This document shows, in pieces, positions 37,080 to 62,829 of a stretch of 62,858 nucleotides of DNA. A program made the position numbers and the translations under genes. This DNA is from Candidatus Omnitrophota bacterium (lineage in GTDB: Bacteria; Omnitrophota; Omnitrophia; Omnitrophales; Aquincolibacteriaceae), in the NCBI GenBank assembly GCA_041674705.1, contig JBAYVF010000008.1:1-62858 (forward strand), given 5' to 3'. Positions within the stretch are counted from its first letter, which is position 1; every line of letters starts with the position of its first letter. The notes beneath the pieces were generated by a model that ran no database searches, was not told the origin of the DNA, and saw only the letters and a list, made by a program, of their open reading frames with translations.

Positions 37080-40000
37080 TTGAGAACCTCGAGTAAAACT
37101 CTCAGGGTCATCAGTTTTTTGACGGCATCCTGCTTTCTGATCACCTCGATTAGCTGGGCCTCTCCGGAAGGCATGGGCGTGTCCCGAGCGATCACAAATC
37201 CCGAGCTTCCTTTCGTCGGCGGGTTCCAAATTCCCGAGCAGTTGGGTTCGGTAAACGAAGTTTACCGCGTTGAGCGGGGAACGGGGAACGGAGAACGCAA
37301 CGACGAAAATGTTTCCCGTTCCCCGTTTGCCGTTTCCCGGTACGACCGCATGGTCGTGCTCATCGAAAACGCCCACGCGAATTACGGCGCGCAGGTCAAG
37401 GTCCGGGAGCTTCTCCGCTACCTGGACAAAACCTACGGCATCAAGACGGTCTTTGTTGAAGGCGCGGCCGAAAAGCTCGATCCTTCCTCGCTCCAATTTT
37501 TTCCTGAAAAAGAAAAGAATCTTAAGCTTGCGGAGTATCTTGCGCAGGAAGGGATCCTGAGCGGGGCGGGGCTCTATCTTGCGGAAGATCCCAAGGGTGT
37601 GGAAGGCCTGCCGCTTGAAGATATAAAACTCTACCGCGCCAATTACGAGGCCCTCAAAAAAGTATTCTCGGCCGGAACTTCAATGGATCGCGGCCTGGAG
37701 ACTATGGAAGCGCGTCTCGGGAAACTTTCCTCCAAAACCCTCTCACCGGAACTCAGGAAAACGCTTGAGGAATGGCAGCGCTTTGAAAAAGGACGGCGGG
37801 AATTTCTGCCTTTTACCGGCCGGCTCGTGGTGCAGGCCAAAGAAGTCCTTCATCTGGACATGCAGAATGCCTACAGCCAGCTCGAGTGGCCTCAGATGGT
37901 CCGATTGCTCGCGCTCCAGAAGATGGAAAAAAAGATCGATCCCGCCAAAGTCCGCGAGGAACGAACGCGCCTTGTGCGTTTTCTAAAAGAGAAGCGTGTT
38001 TCCGAGGGAACGATCCTGTCGCTTGAGCAAGCATTTGGTGAGACTCCGGCGGACCCGAAGCTGGATCTCCGTGCTGTTTTCGAATCCTTCGTGACGGATG
38101 CACGGGCCAAAGGGCTGCTTCTCAAGGATTGGCCTTCTTTTACGGCTTATGCCGCACACCGCACGCTGCAGCAGGAGCTCGATGCCCCTGCCCTTTTTAA
38201 GGAGATCGGGCGCCTCTTTGCCGGGATCACGGATTCACTTGCGAAAACGGATCAAGAAAAAGCCCTCGTTCGGCTTCATCGCGATCTCACTCTTTTCTCG
38301 AAACTGCTTCATCTTGAATTGTCGAGGGATGAGTGCTCGGAACTATTGGCTCGCAAAATATCGCCCAAAAGATTGACGGATCAACTTAATCTGGCGCAAC
38401 GCGCAACGGCCAACGCGCAACGATTGACGAATTTCAAGACTGGCCCGTCATCCCCGAACGTTTTAATCGGGGATCAAGGTCTGGATTCCCGCTTTCGCGG
38501 GAATGACATGGAGGCGATCCATGCGAATGCTCTCGCTTTCTATTCCTTCGCCTCTCAGCGTGAAAAGGTTTTTTATGACAAGATCGATCGCGCGATGCGT
38601 GAGAAGGGGATCACGAAAGCGGTTGTCGTGACCGGCGGTTTTCATACGGAAGGCATGAGCCAGATCCTTCGCGAAAAAGGGGCGGGTTTTGCGGTCGTGA
38701 CGCCGCATATCTCGGAAACTTCCGATGCCCGTCTTTATAAAGATGCGATGCTTGGCAGGCGTAATGCTGTCATTGCGAGTCGCGAAGACGGCGAAGCAAT
38801 CTCGGCGATGCAACATTCAGATCCCAGTCAGTTCGCAGGAGCTTCTTTTCTCGATGCCGCCCAGCCCCAGCAATCTGCAGGCGTCGTGACCGCCCTCCGG
38901 GGCAGTTCCTATCGCTCCGACATCGCGGCCGGCCTTACCCAGATCACCGGCATCCATGATCCACAGCGAATCGCTGCCGTGATGAGCGTGAAACAAACTT
39001 CAGACCGCAAGTCGCAAGAAGTAGTAGGAATCTCGGATCTTCGGTCTTCATCCTCCGATCTTCAGTCTGGAAAAATTCGCGCCGAGGTGAGGAAAGATAA
39101 TGAGAAGGACAAAAAACCTGGTTCCTCGGACAAGGTCAAAAACTTCATAAAAAGCAAAATAACTCCCGATAAATTTTCCATTATCGATGATAATCGGAAC
39201 CACGCCGCCAAGAACATTCTGCAAGTCCTGGCCCGGGGGCAATTGCCCGTGGTGTTCCCGTACCAGATCCAGCTCGACCTAACTCAATTTTGTCCTTTTT
39301 GGGATGTCATCCAGCGGACGGGGAAGGGGTTCAAAGATTGTATCCATTGTGCCTTTCCGAGCAAGACAAGACGCCAGGTCGACCCCGCCATTCTGACCAA
39401 GATTCTGAAGAATTTCGAAGCGCACGGGGGCAAATCCATTTTTGTCACCGGCGGCGGTGAGCCCGGTGTCTACGAGTCCTGGCATGAATTTTTTAGTTTT
39501 TTGGCAGGTTCTCGATTAGGCCTGACGATGAACACCAATGGCCTGTTCGTTAAAAAACTGTTCAAGGAAGATCCCGATATTCTCCGGAAGGTTTTTTCGG
39601 AGGAAAAAGACCCCAGCGTGATCAGTATTTCGATCCATGGGGACTATGCGTATAAGTTGGTAACACAACTGAATGATATGCGTCAAAAGTTAGGGCTGAA
39701 CATCGTGATTCGTAACACCTATCTTGTTCATCCCGACACGCCCATTTCGGAACTCACCGAATTTCTCGAAAAAAGCCAGGGATCAGGGGCGGACATGGTT
39801 TCTTTTAAGCCGGAGCACGTTTTAAAAGGGGATCAGCGGGTCTTTTCCACGAATGAGGTGGCCTACCGCTTTATTCAGAATCTTCTTTACCAGCAAGCGG
39901 CTAAGGACAAGGGGATGCTCGAGCTGGCTCACCCCTACGATCTGGTGATCACGGCCATGAGGCCAAATCGCCTGAAGAACGATTTTGAATCCGTCCGTAC

Positions 40001-55530: not shown

Positions 55531-57357
55531 ATGAAACCTCCTCTTAAAATTGCGATTGCGCAAATGAATCCCACTGTCGGAGATTATGCTTCGAATACGG
55601 CGAGGATCCTTCGATGGCTTGATCTGGCTGAGCGGCAAGGCGCGGATCTGATCGTTTTCCCTGAGGCCGCTCTCTGCGGCTATCCTGTCTGGGATCTTGC
55701 CAATAAAAAGCAATTCCTGGCCGAAGGAATGAAGTGTTTGAAAAAGATCGCGGCGGCTACCCGGAAAAAGAATATCGCAGTCGTGGTCGGTTTTATTGAT
55801 GCAGGTACGGCGTACGGAGTAAGGTGTACGGCGAAAACGTCTGACGCCGTACACCGTACACCTTACGCTTTTAATGCTCTCGCCTGGATCGAAAAGGGCA
55901 AGATCCGGACGATTTATCACAAACAATTGTTGCCCACCTATGATGTCTTTTTGGAAGATATCTTCTTTCGGCCCGGGACCGAGACCAAGGTCGTCTCTTT
56001 TCGAGGTTATAAAGTGGGGCTGACGATCTGTGAGGATATGTGGGACGAACGTTATGAGGTCAAGCCCCTTGCTGCGCTTGCGAAAAAGAAAGCCGAGCTT
56101 GTCCTTAATATTTCCGCTTCGCCCTATTACCGGGCTGTTGCCGCGGCCCGCGAAAAGCTTCTTCAAGGCCATGTGCGCCGCTATGGTTTCCCGATCCTTT
56201 ATGTGAATCAGGTCGGGGGGCAGGACGACCTGCTTTTCGACGGCCGCAGTCTTTTTATGGACGCGAAAGGCCGCGTTCTTTTTAAGGCACCCGCGTTTGA
56301 AGAGGGGCTTTTCTTTTTCAGCCATGATCCTTCTCAACCTCCGAGGTTGAAAATCCGACCTCGGAGGTTGGATCCGGTTCGAGAGGTGTATCAGGCGCTT
56401 GTGATGGGCGTGCGGGATTATTTCCGGAAGAATGGGTTCAGGAAAGCTGTGATCGGTTTGAGCGGCGGGATCGATTCCGCTTTGGTTGCGACGATCGCGG
56501 TGGATGCTCTTGGAAAAGAGGCTGTCAAAGGTGTGACGATGCCCGGGCCTTTTTCCTCCGAAGGGAGCTGGAAAGATTCCGAAGAACTCGCGAAGAACCT
56601 TGGCATTGCTTTTGAAGTGAGGCCGATCAAAGAAATGTACCGGACGTTTTTAAAAAAAGGCAAAGCCCCCTCACCTTTGTCCTCTCCCCAGGGGAGAGGG
56701 TTGGGTGAGGGGAATGCTGCTCAGGGAAAGGGGCCGACGCTAGCGATGGAAAATCTTCAGGCGCGGCTACGCGGCATGGAGCTCATGTTCATTTCGAATG
56801 ATGAAGGCCGTTTGGTCCTGACGACCGGAAATAAATCCGAGCTGGCCATGGGGTATTGCACGCTTTATGGCGACATGGCGGGCGGCCTTGCGGTGATCGG
56901 CGATGTTTATAAAACTGATGTCTACCGGCTTGCACGCTACCGGAACACCCTTAAGAAAGTGATCCCGGAGGCCACGCTTACCAAGGCTCCGTCTGCGGAA
57001 CTCCGGCCCAACCAGAAGGATCAGGATTCGTTGCCGTCTTATGATGCGCTGGATGAAGTGCTCGGCCTCTATATTGAAAAAAATCTGAGCCGTGATGAGA
57101 TCATCCGGAAGCTGATGAGGAAAGGAAAGGCTTTTATGTCATTCCCGCATGTTGTAAGCGGGAATCCAGATTCTGGATCCCCGATAAAAGCATTCGGGGA
57201 TGACAAGACAAAGAGAATCTCTCTCTTAGTAAACGAAGTGGTCCGTAAGGTGGACCATAATGAATACAAGCGCCGCCAAACGCCTCCCATTCTGCGTGTA
57301 ACCGAAAAAGCATGGTTCGGACGCCGCATGCCGATCACGAATCGATTTTTGGGGTAG
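55531..57357 (+). CDS. nadE: Glutamine-dependent NAD+ synthetase
   Basis: Nitrilase-type E-K-C triad (FPEAALCGY, YHKQLLP, ICEDMW) plus synthetase motifs GLSGGIDS, NLQARLR, TGNKSE, PSAEL and NEYKRRQ. Carries three in-frame repeat insertions. Confidence 0.97.
   Translation: MKPPLKIAIAQMNPTVGDYASNTARILRWLDLAERQGADLIVFPEAALCGYPVWDLANKKQFLAEGMKCLKKIAAATRKKNIAVVVGFIDAGTAYGVRCTAKTSDAVHRTPYAFNALAWIEKGKIRTIYHKQLLPTYDVFLEDIFFRPGTETKVVSFRGYKVGLTICEDMWDERYEVKPLAALAKKKAELVLNISASPYYRAVAAAREKLLQGHVRRYGFPILYVNQVGGQDDLLFDGRSLFMDAKGRVLFKAPAFEEGLFFFSHDPSQPPRLKIRPRRLDPVREVYQALVMGVRDYFRKNGFRKAVIGLSGGIDSALVATIAVDALGKEAVKGVTMPGPFSSEGSWKDSEELAKNLGIAFEVRPIKEMYRTFLKKGKAPSPLSSPQGRGLGEGNAAQGKGPTLAMENLQARLRGMELMFISNDEGRLVLTTGNKSELAMGYCTLYGDMAGGLAVIGDVYKTDVYRLARYRNTLKKVIPEATLTKAPSAELRPNQKDQDSLPSYDALDEVLGLYIEKNLSRDEIIRKLMRKGKAFMSFPHVVSGNPDSGSPIKAFGDDKTKRISLLVNEVVRKVDHNEYKRRQTPPILRVTEKAWFGRRMPITNRFLG
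55805..55868. repeat. GTACGGC heptamer inverted repeat, in frame in nadE
   Basis: GTACGGC GTACGGA GTAAGGT GTACGGC ... CGCCGTA CACCGTA CACCTTA. Same family as 58323-58390. Confidence 0.8.
56667..56712. repeat. CCCTCTCCC/GGGAGAGGG REP-like element, in frame in nadE
   Basis: CCCCTCACC..CCTCTCCCC-A-GGGGAGAGG..GGTGAGGGG, encoding PSPLSSPQGRGLGEG. Confidence 0.8.
57138..57204. repeat. GTCAT..ATGAC miniature element, in frame in nadE
   Basis: GTCATTCCCGCATGTTGTAAGCGGGAATCCAGATTCTGGATCCCCGATAAAAGCATTCGGGGATGAC. Confidence 0.85.
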
Positions 57358-57986: not shown

Positions 57987-58319
57987 TTGCAGCCTAAAAA
58001 GATCGCCGAATTGTTAAGAACGCTTGCGGAAGACAAGAAGGCCGAAGAACCGGTCCTTCTGGATATTTCCAAGCAGTCCAGCATTGCGCATTATTTCCTG
58101 ATCTGTCACGGGAATAGCGACCGCCATGTGAAGTCCATTGCGATGCATCTGATGGATGAAATGAAGCAGAAGAAGATGCAAGCCTTCCACGTCGAGGGCC
58201 TGGTGGAAGGGAAATGGGTGCTTCTCGACTTCGGACCTGTGATCGCCCATATCTTCTATCATGAAACCCGAGAATTCTACGGCCTCGAGCGGCTGTGGGG
58301 AGAAGCGAAGAAAATATAA
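57987..58319 (+). CDS. rsfS: Ribosome silencing factor RsfS (Iojap)
   Basis: DKKAEEPVLLDI, YFLICHGNSDRHVKSIA, WVLLDFGPVIAHIF..ETREFYGLERLW; SD AGGGAG; TGCTATAAT upstream. Confidence 0.95.
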   Translation: MQPKKIAELLRTLAEDKKAEEPVLLDISKQSSIAHYFLICHGNSDRHVKSIAMHLMDEMKQKKMQAFHVEGLVEGKWVLLDFGPVIAHIFYHETREFYGLERLWGEAKKI

Positions 58320-58322
58320 AGA

Positions 58323-58390
58323 GTACTGCGTACGGAGTACGGCGTACGGCGAAAAAAATACGCCGTACGCGTGACGCCTTCCGCCGTACG
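58323..58390. repeat. GTACGGC heptamer inverted repeat, intergenic rsfS-argS
   Basis: GTACTGC GTACGGA GTACGGC GTACGGC GAAAA... CGCCGTA CGCGTGA CGCCTTC CGCCGTA. Confidence 0.8.
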
Positions 58391-58396
58391 AGTCTT

Positions 58397-60058
58397 ATGA
58401 AATCCAAACTCGAAATCCTCATCAATTCCGTGGTCGACGCATATTGCAGCCAGCAGGGCGCTGCAAAGCCCGAGGGCTTTGCGTATGACCTCCATCCTCC
58501 CAAAGACAGCCAGCACGGGGACCTTTCGTGCAATGTCGCGTTCCGGCTCGCAAAAGTCACACGTCAAAAGCCCGCCGAGATCGCTGACGGATTGATCAAG
58601 TTGCTTGAGCAAAAGCCCGCCAAGGATTCCCCGGTCGAAAAAACGGAGATCGCCGGCGGGGGATTCATCAATTTCTACCTGACAAAGTCAGGTCTCGGCG
58701 CAGTACTCCTCGAAATCCATAAGCAGGACAAGCATTACGGCCGTTCCGATTTCGGAAAAGGCAAAAAGGCCATCCTGGAATTTGTGAGTGCCAATCCCAC
58801 GGGGCCGCTCACGATCGCGCACGGCCGCCAGGCTGCGATCGGGGATTGTCTGGCGCGCATCCTCAAGTTCACAGGCCATGCGGTGCATTCGGAATATTAT
58901 CTGAACGATGCCGGTCGCCAGATGCGGATGCTGGCTCAAAGCGTCTGGGTCCGCTACAACGAACTTTTGGGAATGGAGATGCCGTTCCCCGAGGAAGGTT
59001 ATCAGGGGGATTATGTCCGCGAGATTGCGCGCGATATTATTGAAAAGGAAAAGAAGGATTCACTCCTTAAAGATCCTGAAGCAAAGGCGGTCGAATATTG
59101 CGGGCTTTATGCGGTCAAGTATCTGATGGGCACGATCGAAGCGGATCTTGCCAAAATGCGGGTTCACTTCGATCATTTTTTCAGCGAGAAGACGCTTTAT
59201 GCCAAAAATGAAGTGGAGCACGCGCTCGGGGTTCTGAAAGAAAAGGGCTATCTTTATGAAAGCGAGGGCGCGCTTTGGTTCCGTTCGACAGATCTTGGGG
59301 ATGATAAGGATCGAGTGGTCAAAAAATCCACGGGGGAATATACGTATTTGGCGCCGGATATTGCGTACCATCTTTCCAAGTACGAACGCGGCTACAACAT
59401 GCTTGTTAATTTCTGGGGGCCGGACCACCACGGCTATATCCCGCGCCTCAAGGCCGCTTGCCAGGTGCTGGGTTATCCTCCGGAAGCCATTCATATCGGG
59501 ATCGTTCAGCTGACCACGCTTTTCAGGAAGGGACAGCCGGTCCGGATGTCCACGCGTGCCGGGGAATTCGTGACGCTCAAGGAACTTTATGACGAAGTGG
59601 GCGTGGACGCAACGCGATTTTTCTTTGTAATGCGCCGCCAGGAAAGTCATCTGGATTTTGATCTCGATCTCGCCAAAGAGCAATCGCAGGAGAATCCCGT
59701 TTTTTATCTGCAGTACGCCCATGCCAGGATCGCGAGTCTTGCGAAGTATGCCGAGCAGGGGATCACGACAAAGGTAGATCTGAAACTTCTTGCGACGCCG
59801 GAAGAAGCCGAGCTGATCGGTTGTCTTTCGCAATTTTCCGAATATCTCATTCAGGCGAGCCGTTCGACCGAGCCGTACCGCTTAGCGGATTATTTGCGTC
59901 AGGTGGCGGCGTGCTTTCATAAGTTCTACAGTCATCACCGCATTGTTACCGAAGACAAAGAGCTGACCAAGGCGCGTCTTCTGTTGGCCGATGCCACCCG
60001 CATCGTCCTCCGCAACGGCCTCGAGCTTCTCGGCATCTCCCAACCGGAGAGTATGTAG
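58397..60058 (+). CDS. argS: Arginine--tRNA ligase
   Basis: HGDLSCNVAF, FVSANPTGPLTIAHGR (HIGH-like), YYLNDAGRQ, TYLAPDIAYH, MSTRAG, NPVFYLQYAHARI. Start 58397 preferred because the longer 5' part is repeat-derived. Confidence 0.96.
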   Translation: MKSKLEILINSVVDAYCSQQGAAKPEGFAYDLHPPKDSQHGDLSCNVAFRLAKVTRQKPAEIADGLIKLLEQKPAKDSPVEKTEIAGGGFINFYLTKSGLGAVLLEIHKQDKHYGRSDFGKGKKAILEFVSANPTGPLTIAHGRQAAIGDCLARILKFTGHAVHSEYYLNDAGRQMRMLAQSVWVRYNELLGMEMPFPEEGYQGDYVREIARDIIEKEKKDSLLKDPEAKAVEYCGLYAVKYLMGTIEADLAKMRVHFDHFFSEKTLYAKNEVEHALGVLKEKGYLYESEGALWFRSTDLGDDKDRVVKKSTGEYTYLAPDIAYHLSKYERGYNMLVNFWGPDHHGYIPRLKAACQVLGYPPEAIHIGIVQLTTLFRKGQPVRMSTRAGEFVTLKELYDEVGVDATRFFFVMRRQESHLDFDLDLAKEQSQENPVFYLQYAHARIASLAKYAEQGITTKVDLKLLATPEEAELIGCLSQFSEYLIQASRSTEPYRLADYLRQVAACFHKFYSHHRIVTEDKELTKARLLLADATRIVLRNGLELLGISQPESM

Positions 60059-60072
60059 ATGGCAGGGGGCAA

Positions 60073-60104
60073 CCCTCTCCCTTCAGGGAGAGGGAAGGGT
60101 GAGG
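60073..60104. repeat. CCCTCTCCC/GGGAGAGGG REP-like hairpin after argS
   Basis: CCCTCTCCC-TTCA-GGGAGAGGG-AAGGGTGAGG; same family as 56667-56712. Confidence 0.75.
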
Positions 60105-60132
60105 TCGTGGTATCAAGGTTTCAGGTCTCTTT

Positions 60133-60492
60133 GTCATCCCCGAATGTTTTAATCGGGGATCCATTTTATGAATGACTTCTTTCTTTACATTCTTGCCAGC
60201 AAAAAAAACGGAACTCTTTACATTGGCGTGACGAACGATCTTGCTAAGCGGATCTATGAGCACAAGAATGATTTGGTTGAAGGGTTTACGAAGCGCTATG
60301 GAGTCCACTTTCTGGTTCATTTTGAGATAACAGATTCTATAGAAAGTGCCATTGCAAGAGAGAAGCAGCTCAAGAAGTGGAACCGCCAATGGAAGATCGA
60401 ATTGATTGAAAAGGGCAATCCGGAATGGGCGGATCTTTATCTGCGTATCGTAAATGGGGAGAAAGATGGATCCCCGCTTTCGCGGGGATGAC
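60133..60492 (+). mobile_element. Candidate autonomous element: left hairpin arm, GIY-YIG nuclease gene, right hairpin arm
   Basis: Left arm 60133-60163 GTCATCCCCGAATGTTTTAATCGGGGATCCA and right arm 60467-60492 TGGATCCCCGCTTTCGCGGGGATGAC are the two halves of the miniature elements at 38447, 57138, 61272 and 62729. Confidence 0.6.
60168..60491 (+). CDS. GIY-YIG nuclease family protein (small, standalone)
   Basis: FLYILASKKNGTLYIGVTNDLAKRIYEHK...GFTKRY...AIAREKQLKKWNRQWKIELIE..NPEW. Confidence 0.93.
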   Translation: MNDFFLYILASKKNGTLYIGVTNDLAKRIYEHKNDLVEGFTKRYGVHFLVHFEITDSIESAIAREKQLKKWNRQWKIELIEKGNPEWADLYLRIVNGEKDGSPLSRG

Positions 60493-61527
60493 ATGAAGAA
60501 AAATCCGTTGGTTCTTTTCATTGTGGGTCCTACCGCCTCAGGAAAATCAGCTCTTGCGGTCGCGCTCGCTAAAAAACTCGACGGTGAAATCCTCTCCGCG
60601 GATTCCATGCTTGTCTACAAGGGGATGGATATCGGGACCGCGAAACCCACAAAAAAAGAGCGCGGCGATATTCCGCATTACGGTCTTGACCTTATTCCGC
60701 CTACCAAAAGTTTCTCGGTTTTTGCCTACCGCCAATATGCTCTCAAGGTCCTCAAGGATATCGTCAGGCGTGGCAAGATCCCTATAGTAGCCGGGGGGAC
60801 TGGCTTTTACGTTAGGGCCCTTCTGGAGGGGCTTTCTCCTCTACCCGGCACTCATGCCGCTATACGGGCAAAGCTCGAGCGGGAGGCCCAGGCGAAGGGC
60901 TTGCCGGCCCTCTATAAACGCCTGCGTAAGTTGGACCCCCGAAGGGCCAAGGCGATCGGGCCTCACAATCAGAGGCGCATCATACGGGCTTTGGAGATCT
61001 ACCTCGCCTCAGGGAAGAAGCCTTCCGAGCCGGCTCCGAAAACGCCGGGTCTTCGGGAGCTGGGCTACAAGCCTTTTGTGATCGGCCTTCACCGGGATCG
61101 TGAGGCGCTTTATCAGAAGATCAATCAGCGCGTGGATACCATGTTCCGAAAAGGGCTCGTGCGCGAAGTGACGCGTCTTGCCCGGAAAAAACTTTCCAAA
61201 ACCGCGCTTCAAGGCGTGGGGTATAAAGAGACGCTTGATTGGATTAAAAATAAGTCGAGCAAAATACCGATGTCATTCCCGCGTGTAATAAGCGGGAATC
61301 CAGAGCGTGGATCCCCGATTAAAGCATTCGGGGATGACAAAGCGAGGGGGACTCCGGTCTCTATAAATGATGTCAAAAATACAATCAAGCAAACAACGCG
61401 GCACTTTGCGAAACGACAGTGGACCTGGTTCAAGCGTGAGAGCGGTATTTGTTGGGTCTGGTGGCCGGAAGGCGCCAGCCTGAAAAGCATTTGTGATCTT
61501 GTCATCCAAAAATTCCAGAGGCTCTAA
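60493..61527 (+). CDS. miaA: tRNA dimethylallyltransferase
   Basis: VGPTASGKS, SADSMLVYKGMDIGTAKP, GGTGFY, NQRRIIRALE, GVGYKE, TRHFAKRQWTWF. Start 60493 chosen because upstream codons are repeat-derived. Confidence 0.96.
   Translation: MKKNPLVLFIVGPTASGKSALAVALAKKLDGEILSADSMLVYKGMDIGTAKPTKKERGDIPHYGLDLIPPTKSFSVFAYRQYALKVLKDIVRRGKIPIVAGGTGFYVRALLEGLSPLPGTHAAIRAKLEREAQAKGLPALYKRLRKLDPRRAKAIGPHNQRRIIRALEIYLASGKKPSEPAPKTPGLRELGYKPFVIGLHRDREALYQKINQRVDTMFRKGLVREVTRLARKKLSKTALQGVGYKETLDWIKNKSSKIPMSFPRVISGNPERGSPIKAFGDDKARGTPVSINDVKNTIKQTTRHFAKRQWTWFKRESGICWVWWPEGASLKSICDLVIQKFQRL
61272..61338. repeat. GTCAT..ATGAC miniature element, in frame in miaA
   Basis: GTCATTCCCGCGTGTAATAAGCGGGAATCCAGAGCGTGGATCCCCGATTAAAGCATTCGGGGATGAC; near-identical to the nadE copy. 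Confidence 0.85.
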
Positions 61528-61529
61528 GA

Positions 61530-62603
61530 ATGCCACGCGATAAAGTCTGCCTCGTCATTATCAAAACCGGCGCCCGGGATCTTCCGGACCTTCGGGAGGT
61601 TTTGGAAGAAATGACAGAACTCACCGAATCGGCGCAGGGGATCGTGGTCGCGAGCCTTACGGCGAGCGTTCCGCATCCAAGTCCAAGCCATTTTATCCGC
61701 GGAGGAAAGATCGAAGAATTGCGGGAAGAGATCGCAAAGACGGGGGCGAACGTGGTGATCTTCAGCGTGGACCTGACGCCTGCCCAGGCACGGAACCTCG
61801 AGACTGAATGTGGTAAACGCGTTGTGGACCGGACGGGTCTTATTTTGGATATCTTTGCGCGGCGCGCGATCTCAAGTGATGGAAAGCTCCAGGTAGAGCT
61901 CGCGCAAATGGAATATCTTCTACCGCGACTTCTGGGACTGGGCGTGGTCCTGTCGCGTCTCGGAGGCGGGATCGGGACCCGCGGGCCTGGAGAACAAATG
62001 CGTGAGGTGGACCGTCGCAAAATCCAAAGGCGCATCGATCATATCAAGGGGCAGATCGAACATCTCCGGACGCACCGCGCGCAGATGCGCCAGGGCCGCA
62101 GGCAAAAAGGGCTCAAACAAGTCGCGATCGTTGGCTACACGAACGCCGGAAAATCCACGCTTCTGAACGCCTTGACCAAAGCGGACGCTTATGTCGAGAA
62201 CCGGCTTTTTGCGACGCTCGATCCCAAGACGCGGATCTATGAGGATGGCCGTGGTCCGGGCATTCTTTTCACCGACACCGTGGGTTTCATCCGCAATTTG
62301 CCGCACGGGCTTGTGAAGGCATTCCACGCGACACTTGAAGAAGTTCTGGATGCGGATTTGATCCTCATCGTGGTGGATGCGGCGACCGAACACGCCGTAC
62401 AGCATAAACGCGTGGTGGATGAAGTCCTCAAAGAGCTGGGCGCGGAATCCCGGCCAAGGCTTCTCACCCTTAACAAGATCGATCTTCTGGGCGATCCGGA
62501 GAAGGCCCGGATCCAGGATGTTTTTCCGGAGGCGGTGCTTATCTCGGCCACGCAAAAGCTCGGGATGCAGGAATTGATCGCAAGGGTCCGGCAAATGTTG
62601 TGA
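61530..62603 (+). CDS. hflX: Ribosome-splitting GTPase HflX
   Basis: ILDIFARRA, LQVELAQ..Y.LPRL, GGGIGTRGPGE, GYTNAGKST, LFATLDP, DTVGFIR.LP, NKID. Confidence 0.96.
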   Translation: MPRDKVCLVIIKTGARDLPDLREVLEEMTELTESAQGIVVASLTASVPHPSPSHFIRGGKIEELREEIAKTGANVVIFSVDLTPAQARNLETECGKRVVDRTGLILDIFARRAISSDGKLQVELAQMEYLLPRLLGLGVVLSRLGGGIGTRGPGEQMREVDRRKIQRRIDHIKGQIEHLRTHRAQMRQGRRQKGLKQVAIVGYTNAGKSTLLNALTKADAYVENRLFATLDPKTRIYEDGRGPGILFTDTVGFIRNLPHGLVKAFHATLEEVLDADLILIVVDAATEHAVQHKRVVDEVLKELGAESRPRLLTLNKIDLLGDPEKARIQDVFPEAVLISATQKLGMQELIARVRQML

Positions 62604-62668: not shown

Positions 62669-62728
62669 GGATCTTTATGGTACAATTTCGCCTGTTTTTC
62701 CCGCCGCACTATAACTTTATTTACACAT

Positions 62729-62788
62729 GTCATCCCCGAATGTTTTTGTCGGGGATCCAGCCTGGATTCCCGCTTTCGCGGGAATGAC
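62729..62788. repeat. GTCAT..ATGAC miniature element, intergenic
   Basis: GTCATCCCCGAATGTTTTTGTCGGGGATCCAGCCTGGATTCCCGCTTTCGCGGGAATGAC. Confidence 0.85.
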
Positions 62789-62829
62789 AAAGTTCTTGGA
62801 CCGTCATTGAATCGAGAAAGGGAACTATT

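Follow-up and report, generated by a model that had tools for sequence, protein, structure and literature searches.

Organization of the argS-miaA locus

The 62,858-nt stretch analyzed here, hereafter the window, is contig C8 (JBAYVF010000008.1) of a 1.78-Mb, 58-contig metagenome-assembled genome of Candidatus Omnitrophota (GCA_041674705.1), labeled G000 and compared with 40 related Omnitrophota genomes, for a set of 41. Between argS and miaA, it carries a small GIY-YIG nuclease gene, here termed ssn-like, enclosed by two inverted hairpins, the L and R arms, each bearing a TGTC tag (Table 1). Judged from its sequence, the locus is very probably an NTS-ssn-NTS cassette, in which an Ssn-family nuclease gene is bracketed by two copies of the hairpin recognized by that family, with the tags facing outward. 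The pairing of Ssn with NTS hairpins or Ssn-related motifs (SRMs) is already published (Chenal et al. 2025, Nat Commun; PMC11893778), and the locus is an Omnitrophota member of that system.

The L arm, composed of a TGTC tag, two stem halves (ATCCCCGA and TCGGGGAT) around a 9-nt loop (ATGTTTTAA), and a CCA tail, is separated by four nucleotides (TTTT) from the ssn ATG at 60168, with its 3′ half (GGGGA) positioned 8-12 nt upstream of that codon. The R arm reads TGTC-ATCCCCGC-GAAA-GCGGGGAT-CCA on the minus strand and includes the ssn TGA stop (60489-60491), its final A forming the A of the miaA ATG (60493). The last 12 residues of the open reading frame (ORF), NGEKDGSPLSRG, represent read-through into the R arm, leaving a nuclease core of ~95 aa. 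A first-pass annotation, made from the letters of the window, had placed the gene between the two arms at 60133-60492, with the L arm ending 4 nt ahead of the ATG and the R arm overlapping the stop; all of these coordinates are confirmed.

The same annotation listed four miniature, gene-less copies in the window. All four are real, each composed of one hairpin of each kind, face to face, with the GTCAT tags on the outside. Without their T and A flanks, they span 38447-38507, 57138-57204, 61272-61338, and 62729-62788, the copies at 57138 and 61272 being inverted relative to the others. The arms of the gene copy, described as the same as those of the miniature copies, do belong to the same family but are not identical, with an R stem of ATCCCCGC in the gene copy and a stem of ATTCCCGC in the miniature copies. 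In-frame insertion holds for the three copies located in a 6066-codon ORF, nadE, and miaA, but not for the copy at 62729, which is intergenic.

Table 1. Coordinates of the cassette, its neighbors, and the gene-less hairpin pairs in the window
Feature	Position	Strand	Description
argS (arginyl-tRNA synthetase)	58295..60058	+	Upstream neighbor; ORF list
Debris of other cassettes, ~73 nt	60059..60131	+	From argS to the L arm
L arm, T-GTCATCCCCGAATGTTTTAATCGGGGAT-CCA	60132..60163	+	Tagged hairpin, tag outward
ssn-like gene, 107 aa	60168..60491	+	PF01541 GIY-YIG, E = 1e-16
R arm, TGG-ATCCCCGCTTTCGCGGGGAT-GAC-A as read on +	60467..60493	-	Hairpin inverted to the L arm
miaA	60493..61527	+	Downstream neighbor; true start is the ATG right after ATGAC (alignment, 20 relatives)
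Gene-less hairpin pair, 69 nt with T and A flanks	61271..61339	-	In frame in miaA, peptide MSFPRVISGNPERGSPIKAFGDD
Gene-less hairpin pair, 69 nt	57137..57205	-	In frame in nadE, peptide MSFPHVVSGNPDSGSPIKAFGDD
Gene-less hairpin pair, 63 nt	38446..38508	+	In frame in the 6066-codon ORF
Gene-less hairpin pair	62728..62789	+	Intergenic, downstream of hflX (61530-62603)

The ssn-like nuclease

SsnA, the characterized Neisseria enzyme, is a 94-aa single-domain GIY-YIG protein (CDD cd10448) that binds the NTS hairpin only as single-stranded DNA (ssDNA) and cleaves just one strand, a few nucleotides upstream of it; mutation of Y6, Y17, or E64 abolished cleavage (PMC11893778). In the 107-aa protein encoded here, PF01541 is the only domain, and the core of its orthologs measures 94-97 aa. 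The AlphaFold model (pLDDT 87.7) comprises a single GIY-YIG domain, with UPF0213 (1zg2) and Slx1 as the best fold matches and the UvrC N-terminal domain near them. Six residues, Y7, Y18, R28, H32, E65, and N84, are invariant across 16 orthologs, and the spacing of Y7, Y18, and E65 (11 and 47 residues) is the same as that of Y6, Y17, and E64 in SsnA. On its size, fold, catalytic spacing, and arms, compared with the published description of SsnA, the protein is assigned as a putative Ssn-family member. No Ssn structure was found in the PDB, and no Neisseria locus appeared among the best 80 loci of our scan of species-representative genomes.

Between G000 and G002, synonymous sites of ssn are saturated, with proportions of synonymous (pS) and nonsynonymous (pN) differences of 0.82 and 0.14, and comparison with the orthologs likewise gives a pN far lower than pS. 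G000 and G002 have the same R arm, and their L arms differ in the loop only. Low pN at saturated pS, combined with an unchanged R arm and L stem, argues that the gene, tags, stems, and tails are under selection, and comparison of the aligned sequences indicates long-term purifying selection on the gene and stems.

A second Ssn-like paralog, with 45% identity, lies on the minus strand of contig C11 (C11:28122-28403) and has tagged hairpins of the ATTGCGAG/ATCGCGAG type, nine of which are present in the genome and one in the window, at 38769. Other small GIY-YIG paralogs, at C28:8098-8535 and C6:39028-39460, are UPF0213/Slx1-like, with ~30% identity to Ssn; they adjoin tRNA-like sequences (GGCAGAGTGGTCGAATGCGGCGG...), and one has a AGTCATTCGCGG..CCGCGAATGACT palindrome just upstream.

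A genome-wide family of paired hairpins

G000 contains 69 hairpins of this family, arranged as 34 pairs plus one further pair on contig C3, in which a seemingly solo hairpin is partnered by one with a compensated AC..GT stem. The repeats occur almost exclusively as tight head-to-head pairs, and the 34-35 gene-less pairs, hereafter twins, four of them in the window, are head-to-head dimers of the same repeats that bracket the gene. The pattern GTCATYCCCGN{6,12}CGGGRATCC yields 64 matches in G000; its reversed control yields 0 in all 41 genomes.

The stem is a perfect 8-bp helix in 64 of the 69 hairpins and falls into four types (ATCCCCGA, ATTCCCGC, ATCCCCGC, and ATTCCCGA) that are distinguished solely by compensated substitutions at stem positions 3 and 8. 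Loops measure 4 nt in 21 hairpins (GAAA, GAAG, and GGAA) and 9 nt in 48, their sequence being free to vary (33 different loops) while the stems are conserved. GTC precedes the palindrome in 69/69 hairpins and C follows it in 68/69, the two elements that in SsnA recognition govern cutting and binding, respectively (PMC11893778). The base preceding GTC is T in 63 hairpins and C in six, and a CCA tail follows the stem in 65/69. Matches to the published degenerate SRM pattern, which admits loops of up to about 5 nt (PMC11893778), number 45 in G000 versus 6-14 in simulated genomes, and 12 hairpins match the NTS consensus at every base but the first (T for C).

A target-site duplication was sought in 34 copies and none was found; these copies possess a near-invariant T ahead of GTCAT and A behind ATGAC. 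An Rfam scan over the gene-less pairs returned sub-threshold noise only. The gene-less element is open in four of six frames, and about one-fifth of the pairs lie in frame inside genes. At least seven copies are in frame in real genes (those of NadE, MiaA, QueA, UvrA, PriA, and CysS and the 6066-codon ORF), and an eighth is in frame in a uracil-DNA-glycosylase-like ORF.

Superimposed on stem conservation is a difference within each pair. Stem position 3 differs between the two hairpins (ATC versus ATT) in 33/33 gene-less pairs caught by the stem pattern, and the matches listed for G011 and G012 obey the same difference; the gene-carrying copy is the only pair with the same position-3 state in both arms. 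In silico folding as ssDNA yields two local hairpins and an outer TGTCAT/ATGACA stem for natural pairs, whereas pairs made identical collapse into one long hairpin, with both recognition hairpins lost. On this modeling, the position-3 difference could matter by keeping both hairpins folded. Two arrangements of the twins coexist, a swapped subfamily of six copies (ATT long-loop with ATC short-loop) and the other arrangement of 26; since the swap needs four coordinated, compensated changes, the subfamilies point to copying by descent.

Homologs, arms, and a candidate specificity residue

A 7-sequence alignment was used as the query against species-representative genomes, and the best 80 loci (55-73% identity) were retained. 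They span many phyla, including Latescibacterota, Planctomycetota, Desulfobacterota, Chloroflexota, Patescibacteria, Cyanobacteria, and Bacteroidota, along with Alpha- and Gammaproteobacteria. Both arms are present at 57 of these loci, one arm at 17, and none at six, so homologous nucleases usually do carry arms, contrary to a refuting outcome named in the first-pass annotation; in the published survey, 42% of Ssn homologs were flanked on both sides by SRMs (PMC11893778). These homologs are at least as similar to the protein as are those from the same genus as G000, suggesting that gene and arms often move horizontally as a unit.

Among the 40 related genomes, 17 carry a close ortholog. At 14-15 of these loci, outward-tagged hairpins flank the gene on both sides, the upstream one lying 5-30 nt from the start codon and the downstream one 0-10 nt from the stop codon. 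Nor is repeat abundance independent of the gene, as a second refuting outcome would have it: at least 10 hairpins of this type are present in 11/17 genomes with an ortholog versus 4/23 without (Fisher p = 0.003). Orthologs with ATTGCGAG arms reside in genomes with 49-199 such tags (G023, G027, and G036), and those with ATYCTGAG arms in genomes with 6-14. The ATTCCGGC-armed ortholog of G037 resides in the only genome rich in such tags (47); G032, also ATTCCGGC-armed, has seven. By sequence comparison, arm type tracks both the nuclease clade and the repeat families of the genome.

Within the best 80 loci, Asn72 (WNR motif) accompanies YCCCG stems in 59/71 arms, whereas Lys72 (WKR motif) accompanies TCCTG or TCCGG stems in 23/36 arms and YCCCG in only six, counts that are inflated by shared ancestry. 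More distant clades combine GWVRKK or GGSRxKK with CTGAG and TGCGAG stems. Residue 72 (window 60381-60383), at the junction of model helices 58-70 and 73-83, thus appears to track stem position 6 and is a candidate specificity determinant, a lead rather than a proof. Neither this covariation nor the within-pair difference appears to be described by Chenal et al. 2025 (PMC11893778).

Filled and empty insertion sites

The argS-miaA junction was surveyed in ~32 genus-level genomes and metagenome contigs. The two genes mostly overlap by 4 nt (ATGTGA) or lie a few nucleotides apart, with the argS stop overlapping the miaA start at empty sites (GTGA). The Ssn cassette is present there in G000, G002, and G008 and in a metagenome contig. 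In G006 and G009, the occupant is a DUF559 gene with CCCTCTCCC/GGGAGAGGG hairpins on its flanks, and in G010 and G013 it is a gene of PF05635 (Pfam; the 23S rRNA intervening-sequence protein family) between heptamer arrays. About nine others carry gene-less heptamer hairpins. The junction is a hotspot common to three kinds of hairpin-bracketed small genes.

Empty junctions are present in sister genomes of G002, G006, G009, and G010. The MiaA tree groups G002 with two empty-site genomes (support 98/91), pairs G006 and G009 each with an empty-site contig (100/99 and 99/96), and places G010 with an empty-site contig and a hairpin-only genome, revealing that cassettes were gained, or precisely lost, several times. 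At a second site, the Ssn cassette of G006, G010, and G031 lies between orthologs of G000 C9:45331-46626 and C9:47275-47688; the corresponding interval of G000 (C9:46626-47275) holds a PF05635 gene with AAGTCACC/GGTGACTT heptamer arrays on its flanks. The patterns at the C9 and argS-miaA sites are thereby reversed between G000 and G010, a reciprocal swap. Gene orientation relative to arm type is flipped in G006 and G010 versus G000, and the site of the G037 cassette is empty in G000 (C12:30786-30894).

The doublets show similar differences. The NadE insert is absent in 17/17 relatives aligned and, against G008, is a clean 69-nt TGTCAT...ATGACA placed between TTTA and AG. The MiaA insert is unique to G000 and absent from same-genus MiaA proteins. 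Such presence/absence differences between related genomes indicate that the cassette and the pairs behave as mobile DNA, and both a mobile cassette and mobile doublets are well supported by these comparisons.

Upstream of the L arm, the argS-proximal debris contains a hairpin, CCCTCTCCC-TTCA-GGGAGAGGG, at 60073-60094 that corresponds to the left arm in DUF559-type cassettes, and beyond it a short heptamer-like sequence, GGTATCAAGGTTTCAGGTCTC. Such a cassette is intact at argS-miaA in G006 and G009, and the G006 spacer begins with the near-identical ATGGCAGGGGGTAACCCTCTCCCC...GGGAGAGGG. The ArgS C-terminal motif LELLGISQPESM* is kept in relatives. A promoter scan around the cassette found nothing.

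Two further sets of in-frame inserts were observed. The MiaA surface loop (residues ~255-290, window 61255-61360) holds other repeat-derived peptides in seven relatives (CHCEKRSDA... in G015, TPGVAPCTHPVCTG in G009 and G011, SHPFFYWGVTPI in G012 and G003, and others in G002 and G014) and constitutes an insertion-tolerant hotspot. A second in-frame insert in nadE, at 56665-56714, reads CCCCCTCACC..TCCTCTCCCCAGGGGAGAGG..GGTGAGGGG and encodes the peptide PSPLSSPQGRGLGEG; it belongs to the hairpin family bracketing DUF559 genes in relatives, with sub-threshold Rfam matches only.

Proposed mechanism and alternatives

By analogy with its characterized homologs, Ssn would bind the folded hairpin in single-stranded but not double-stranded DNA and would cut a few nucleotides to the 5′ side of the (T/C)GTC tag; a cassette or twin would then be nicked once immediately beyond each of its ends, the two nicks lying on different strands. 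Cutting of these hairpins by this protein is presumed from the same analogy, and we infer that the cassette and twins could be inserted, excised, or copied as a result of such nicks. The structure proposed in the first-pass annotation, in which one hairpin family has a copy with the gene and derivatives without it, stands, while the nuclease as mobilizer is still a matter of inference; that idea has also been raised in print, where it is likewise unproven (PMC11893778).

Several observations weigh against the reading of the locus as a cassette coupled to its genomic repeats. Four relatives (G022, G025, G013, and G003) hold 21-52 hairpins yet no close ssn gene, and one of them, G022, is 92% complete. 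Six relatives with an ortholog have none of this exact hairpin type, because their arm types differ. Arms had been expected to co-vary with the most abundant genomic repeat; they do match a genomic repeat family, but not always the most abundant one, and the arm types of G033 are nearly unique in its genome. The L arm, with its 9-nt loop, fails the SRM pattern, though its tag, stem, and tail are the same, and homology to the characterized SsnA appears to be indirect. A metagenome scan with MiaA returned no near-identical strain (best 73%, with one fragment at 86%) and thus no empty site from the same species, so that exact insertion boundaries are drawn from comparison with diverged relatives.

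A tentative account of mobility, the reading of the first-pass annotation in full, takes the Ssn-like nuclease as the transposase of a ~360-bp autonomous element and the twins as miniature inverted-repeat transposable elements (MITEs) moved in trans; movement would proceed via ssDNA, in the manner of IS200/IS605 elements and REP-associated tyrosine transposases (RAYTs; REP, repetitive extragenic palindrome). Chenal et al. put forward the same idea (PMC11893778). The gene sits exactly at the position of the twin spacer, arms and gene travel together across phyla, gene and repeat co-occur, and sister genomes hold empty sites. Twin subfamilies of six and 26 copies separated by four compensated changes, the lack of target duplication at the clean NadE insert, as with IS200/IS605-type elements, and the differing hairpins that keep both folded in ssDNA are also consistent with this account. 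However, GIY-YIG enzymes hydrolyze DNA, and joining would need host factors; we know of no covalent intermediate, strand-transfer, or strand-joining chemistry in this family. SsnA leaves the reverse strand of its site uncut (PMC11893778), and such one-strand cutting implies one nick per twin strand, whereas peel-and-paste makes two cuts on the same strand. Transposition itself has not been observed, the four repeat-rich genomes named above lack the gene, and filled alleles could spread by homologous recombination of conserved flanks. The lack of a known joining chemistry, the single-strand nicking, and these gene-less, repeat-rich genomes lead us to hold the mobilizer claim at well below even confidence.

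A host-side role is possible but doubtful: Ssn and the hairpins would form a domesticated device for ssDNA restriction or genome dynamics, e.g., trimming incoming transforming or conjugating strands next to repeats, with the arms serving regulation or self-marking and the repeats spreading otherwise. Restriction of transforming ssDNA is the only function demonstrated for the family, deletion of ssnA giving five-fold more transformation with NTS-bearing DNA in N. meningitidis (PMC11893778), and the long-term purifying selection on gene and stems, with stems kept while loops drift, fits such a role. It leaves unexplained the joint movement of gene and arms between phyla and sites, the junction shared with two other hairpin-bracketed, selfish-looking genes, and the in-frame twins in seven housekeeping or giant genes.

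We consider it unlikely that the twins are pre-existing landing pads into which the ssn gene invades or swaps by nick-stimulated recombination, with DUF559 and PF05635 genes doing likewise with their own repeats and the mini copies being empty slots rather than deletion derivatives. The gene precisely replaces the 1-30-nt twin spacer, its orientation relative to arm type is flipped in G006 and G010, and cassette types swap reciprocally between the argS-miaA and C9 sites, all of which speak for such homing. Yet a gene-less NTS twin occurs in 0 of the ~32 genus-level argS-miaA junctions, and the gene copy alone shares its stem-position-3 state between arms and is therefore more than an existing twin type with the gene added. 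Chance flanking of an unrelated small gene by two solitary REP-like hairpins, conceivable given the frequency of hairpins in the intergenic DNA of G000, is rejected since the arrangement recurs in 57/80 homologs and 14-15/17 relatives, with tags always outward and a few nucleotides from the start and stop.

Implications

A cassette of this kind is already known, and the value of the locus is comparative. It extends the Ssn/SRM pairing to Omnitrophota, along with homologs in many other phyla, and provides concrete filled and empty sites for cassette and doublets, where Chenal et al. 2025 had only speculated on an origin resembling insertion sequences (ISs). The relation of residue 72 to stem position 6 and the folding rule for paired sites offer leads for Ssn proteins as programmable ssDNA cutters. 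Proof that Ssn mobilizes the doublets would provide the "orphan" CGTC REP superfamily with its enzyme.

More speculatively, and with considerable doubt, Ssn-type nucleases might act as the enzymes behind a separate class of prokaryotic mobile elements moving via folded ssDNA, in which the 360-bp cassette is autonomous and tagged REP doublets (dRS3/NTS, Rickettsia RPE-4/6, and the twins) are its MITEs. In that case, the differing-hairpin rule would define the substrate, the covariation of Asn/Lys72 with stem position 6 would form part of a recognition code, and the Ssn, DUF559, and PF05635 cassettes would represent a guild of minimal selfish elements.

Comparison with known systems

Homing endonucleases of the GIY-YIG type (I-TevI, T4 Seg) share the domain and the setting of a selfish-looking small gene between conserved genes, and an assignment to them was rejected: TIGR01453 scores 25 bits against a cut-off of 56, its match covers the first 35 residues only, and no second domain is present. 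The protein lacks their DNA-binding domain, and the locus has hairpin arms and gene-less copies, which to our knowledge are not features of homing endonuclease genes.

REP/RAYT systems comprise an HUH Y1 tyrosine transposase flanked by GTAG-tagged REPs. The locus resembles REP/REPIN-RAYT and IS200/IS605 systems in having a small nuclease gene between inverted copies of a doublet-dispersed hairpin, in hairpin recognition on ssDNA, and in showing no visible target duplication; it differs in its enzyme, a GIY-YIG hydrolase rather than an HUH tyrosine enzyme, and in its tag, GTC rather than GTAG. The RAYT-like layout and dRS3-like hairpin cores pointed out in the first-pass annotation are thus both borne out, the latter by the CGTC-1/dRS3 match described below.

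A RAYT as the actual partner of these hairpins was rejected. The only RAYT-like ORF in G000, at C26:7955-8796, scores below both family cut-offs (22 bits against PF01797, cut-off 23, and 56.6 against NF047646, cut-off 80). A different palindrome, TCAAATACCSGGTAYTTGA, flanks it as two pairs and has eight copies genome-wide, and contig C26 contains no GTCAT hairpin. Each small nuclease gene thus has a hairpin family of its own. The C26 ORF and its palindromes resemble a small REP/RAYT-like system distinct from the GTCAT hairpins.

Among catalogued repeats, a close counterpart is family CGTC-1 of the CGTC/TGTC-tagged REPs (Di Nocera, De Gregorio & Rocco 2013; PMC3733652), which includes Neisseria dRS3 and Rickettsia RPE-4/RPE-6 and is defined by an 8-bp stem beginning with AT, a 4-nt loop, a CCA tail, and head-to-head dimers, with loop variants in some taxa. 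The hairpins of G000 share the TGTC/CGTC tag, the AT-starting 8-bp stem, the CCA tail, and the head-to-head dimers; as to the loop, 21 copies have a 4-nt GAAA-type loop and 48 a 9-nt loop. Copies in the repair and replication genes encoding UvrA and PriA echo the Rickettsia RPEs and intragenic REPs (PMC3733652). CGTC REPs were judged to be without a dedicated enzyme (PMC3733652), whereas in G000 the repeats enclose a GIY-YIG gene, in line with Chenal et al. 2025, and the 9-nt-loop variant is dominant.

The locus matches the Ssn/NTS-SRM system in several respects. NTS-ssn-NTS cassettes are in print, where they are called IS-like and the RAYT/REP analogy is drawn (PMC11893778). Shared features include a single-domain GIY-YIG protein of ~95 aa with Tyr, Tyr, and Glu at the mutated SsnA positions, a motif on both sides of the gene and multiplied in the genome, and nuclease clades with different hairpins; the short-loop hairpins here, GTCATTCCCGCGAAAGCGGGAATCCAG, fit the NTS consensus (CGTCATTCCCGCGMAVGCGGGAATCYRG in Neisseria; PMC11893778), and the R arm is a match to the published SRM pattern. 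The Omnitrophota system differs in its uncultured host, in the two-thirds of hairpins whose 9-nt loop falls outside that search pattern, in the tight head-to-head pairing with always-differing stems, and in the placement of about one-fifth of its pairs in frame inside genes, compared with 2% of NTS inside genes in N. meningitidis (PMC11893778).

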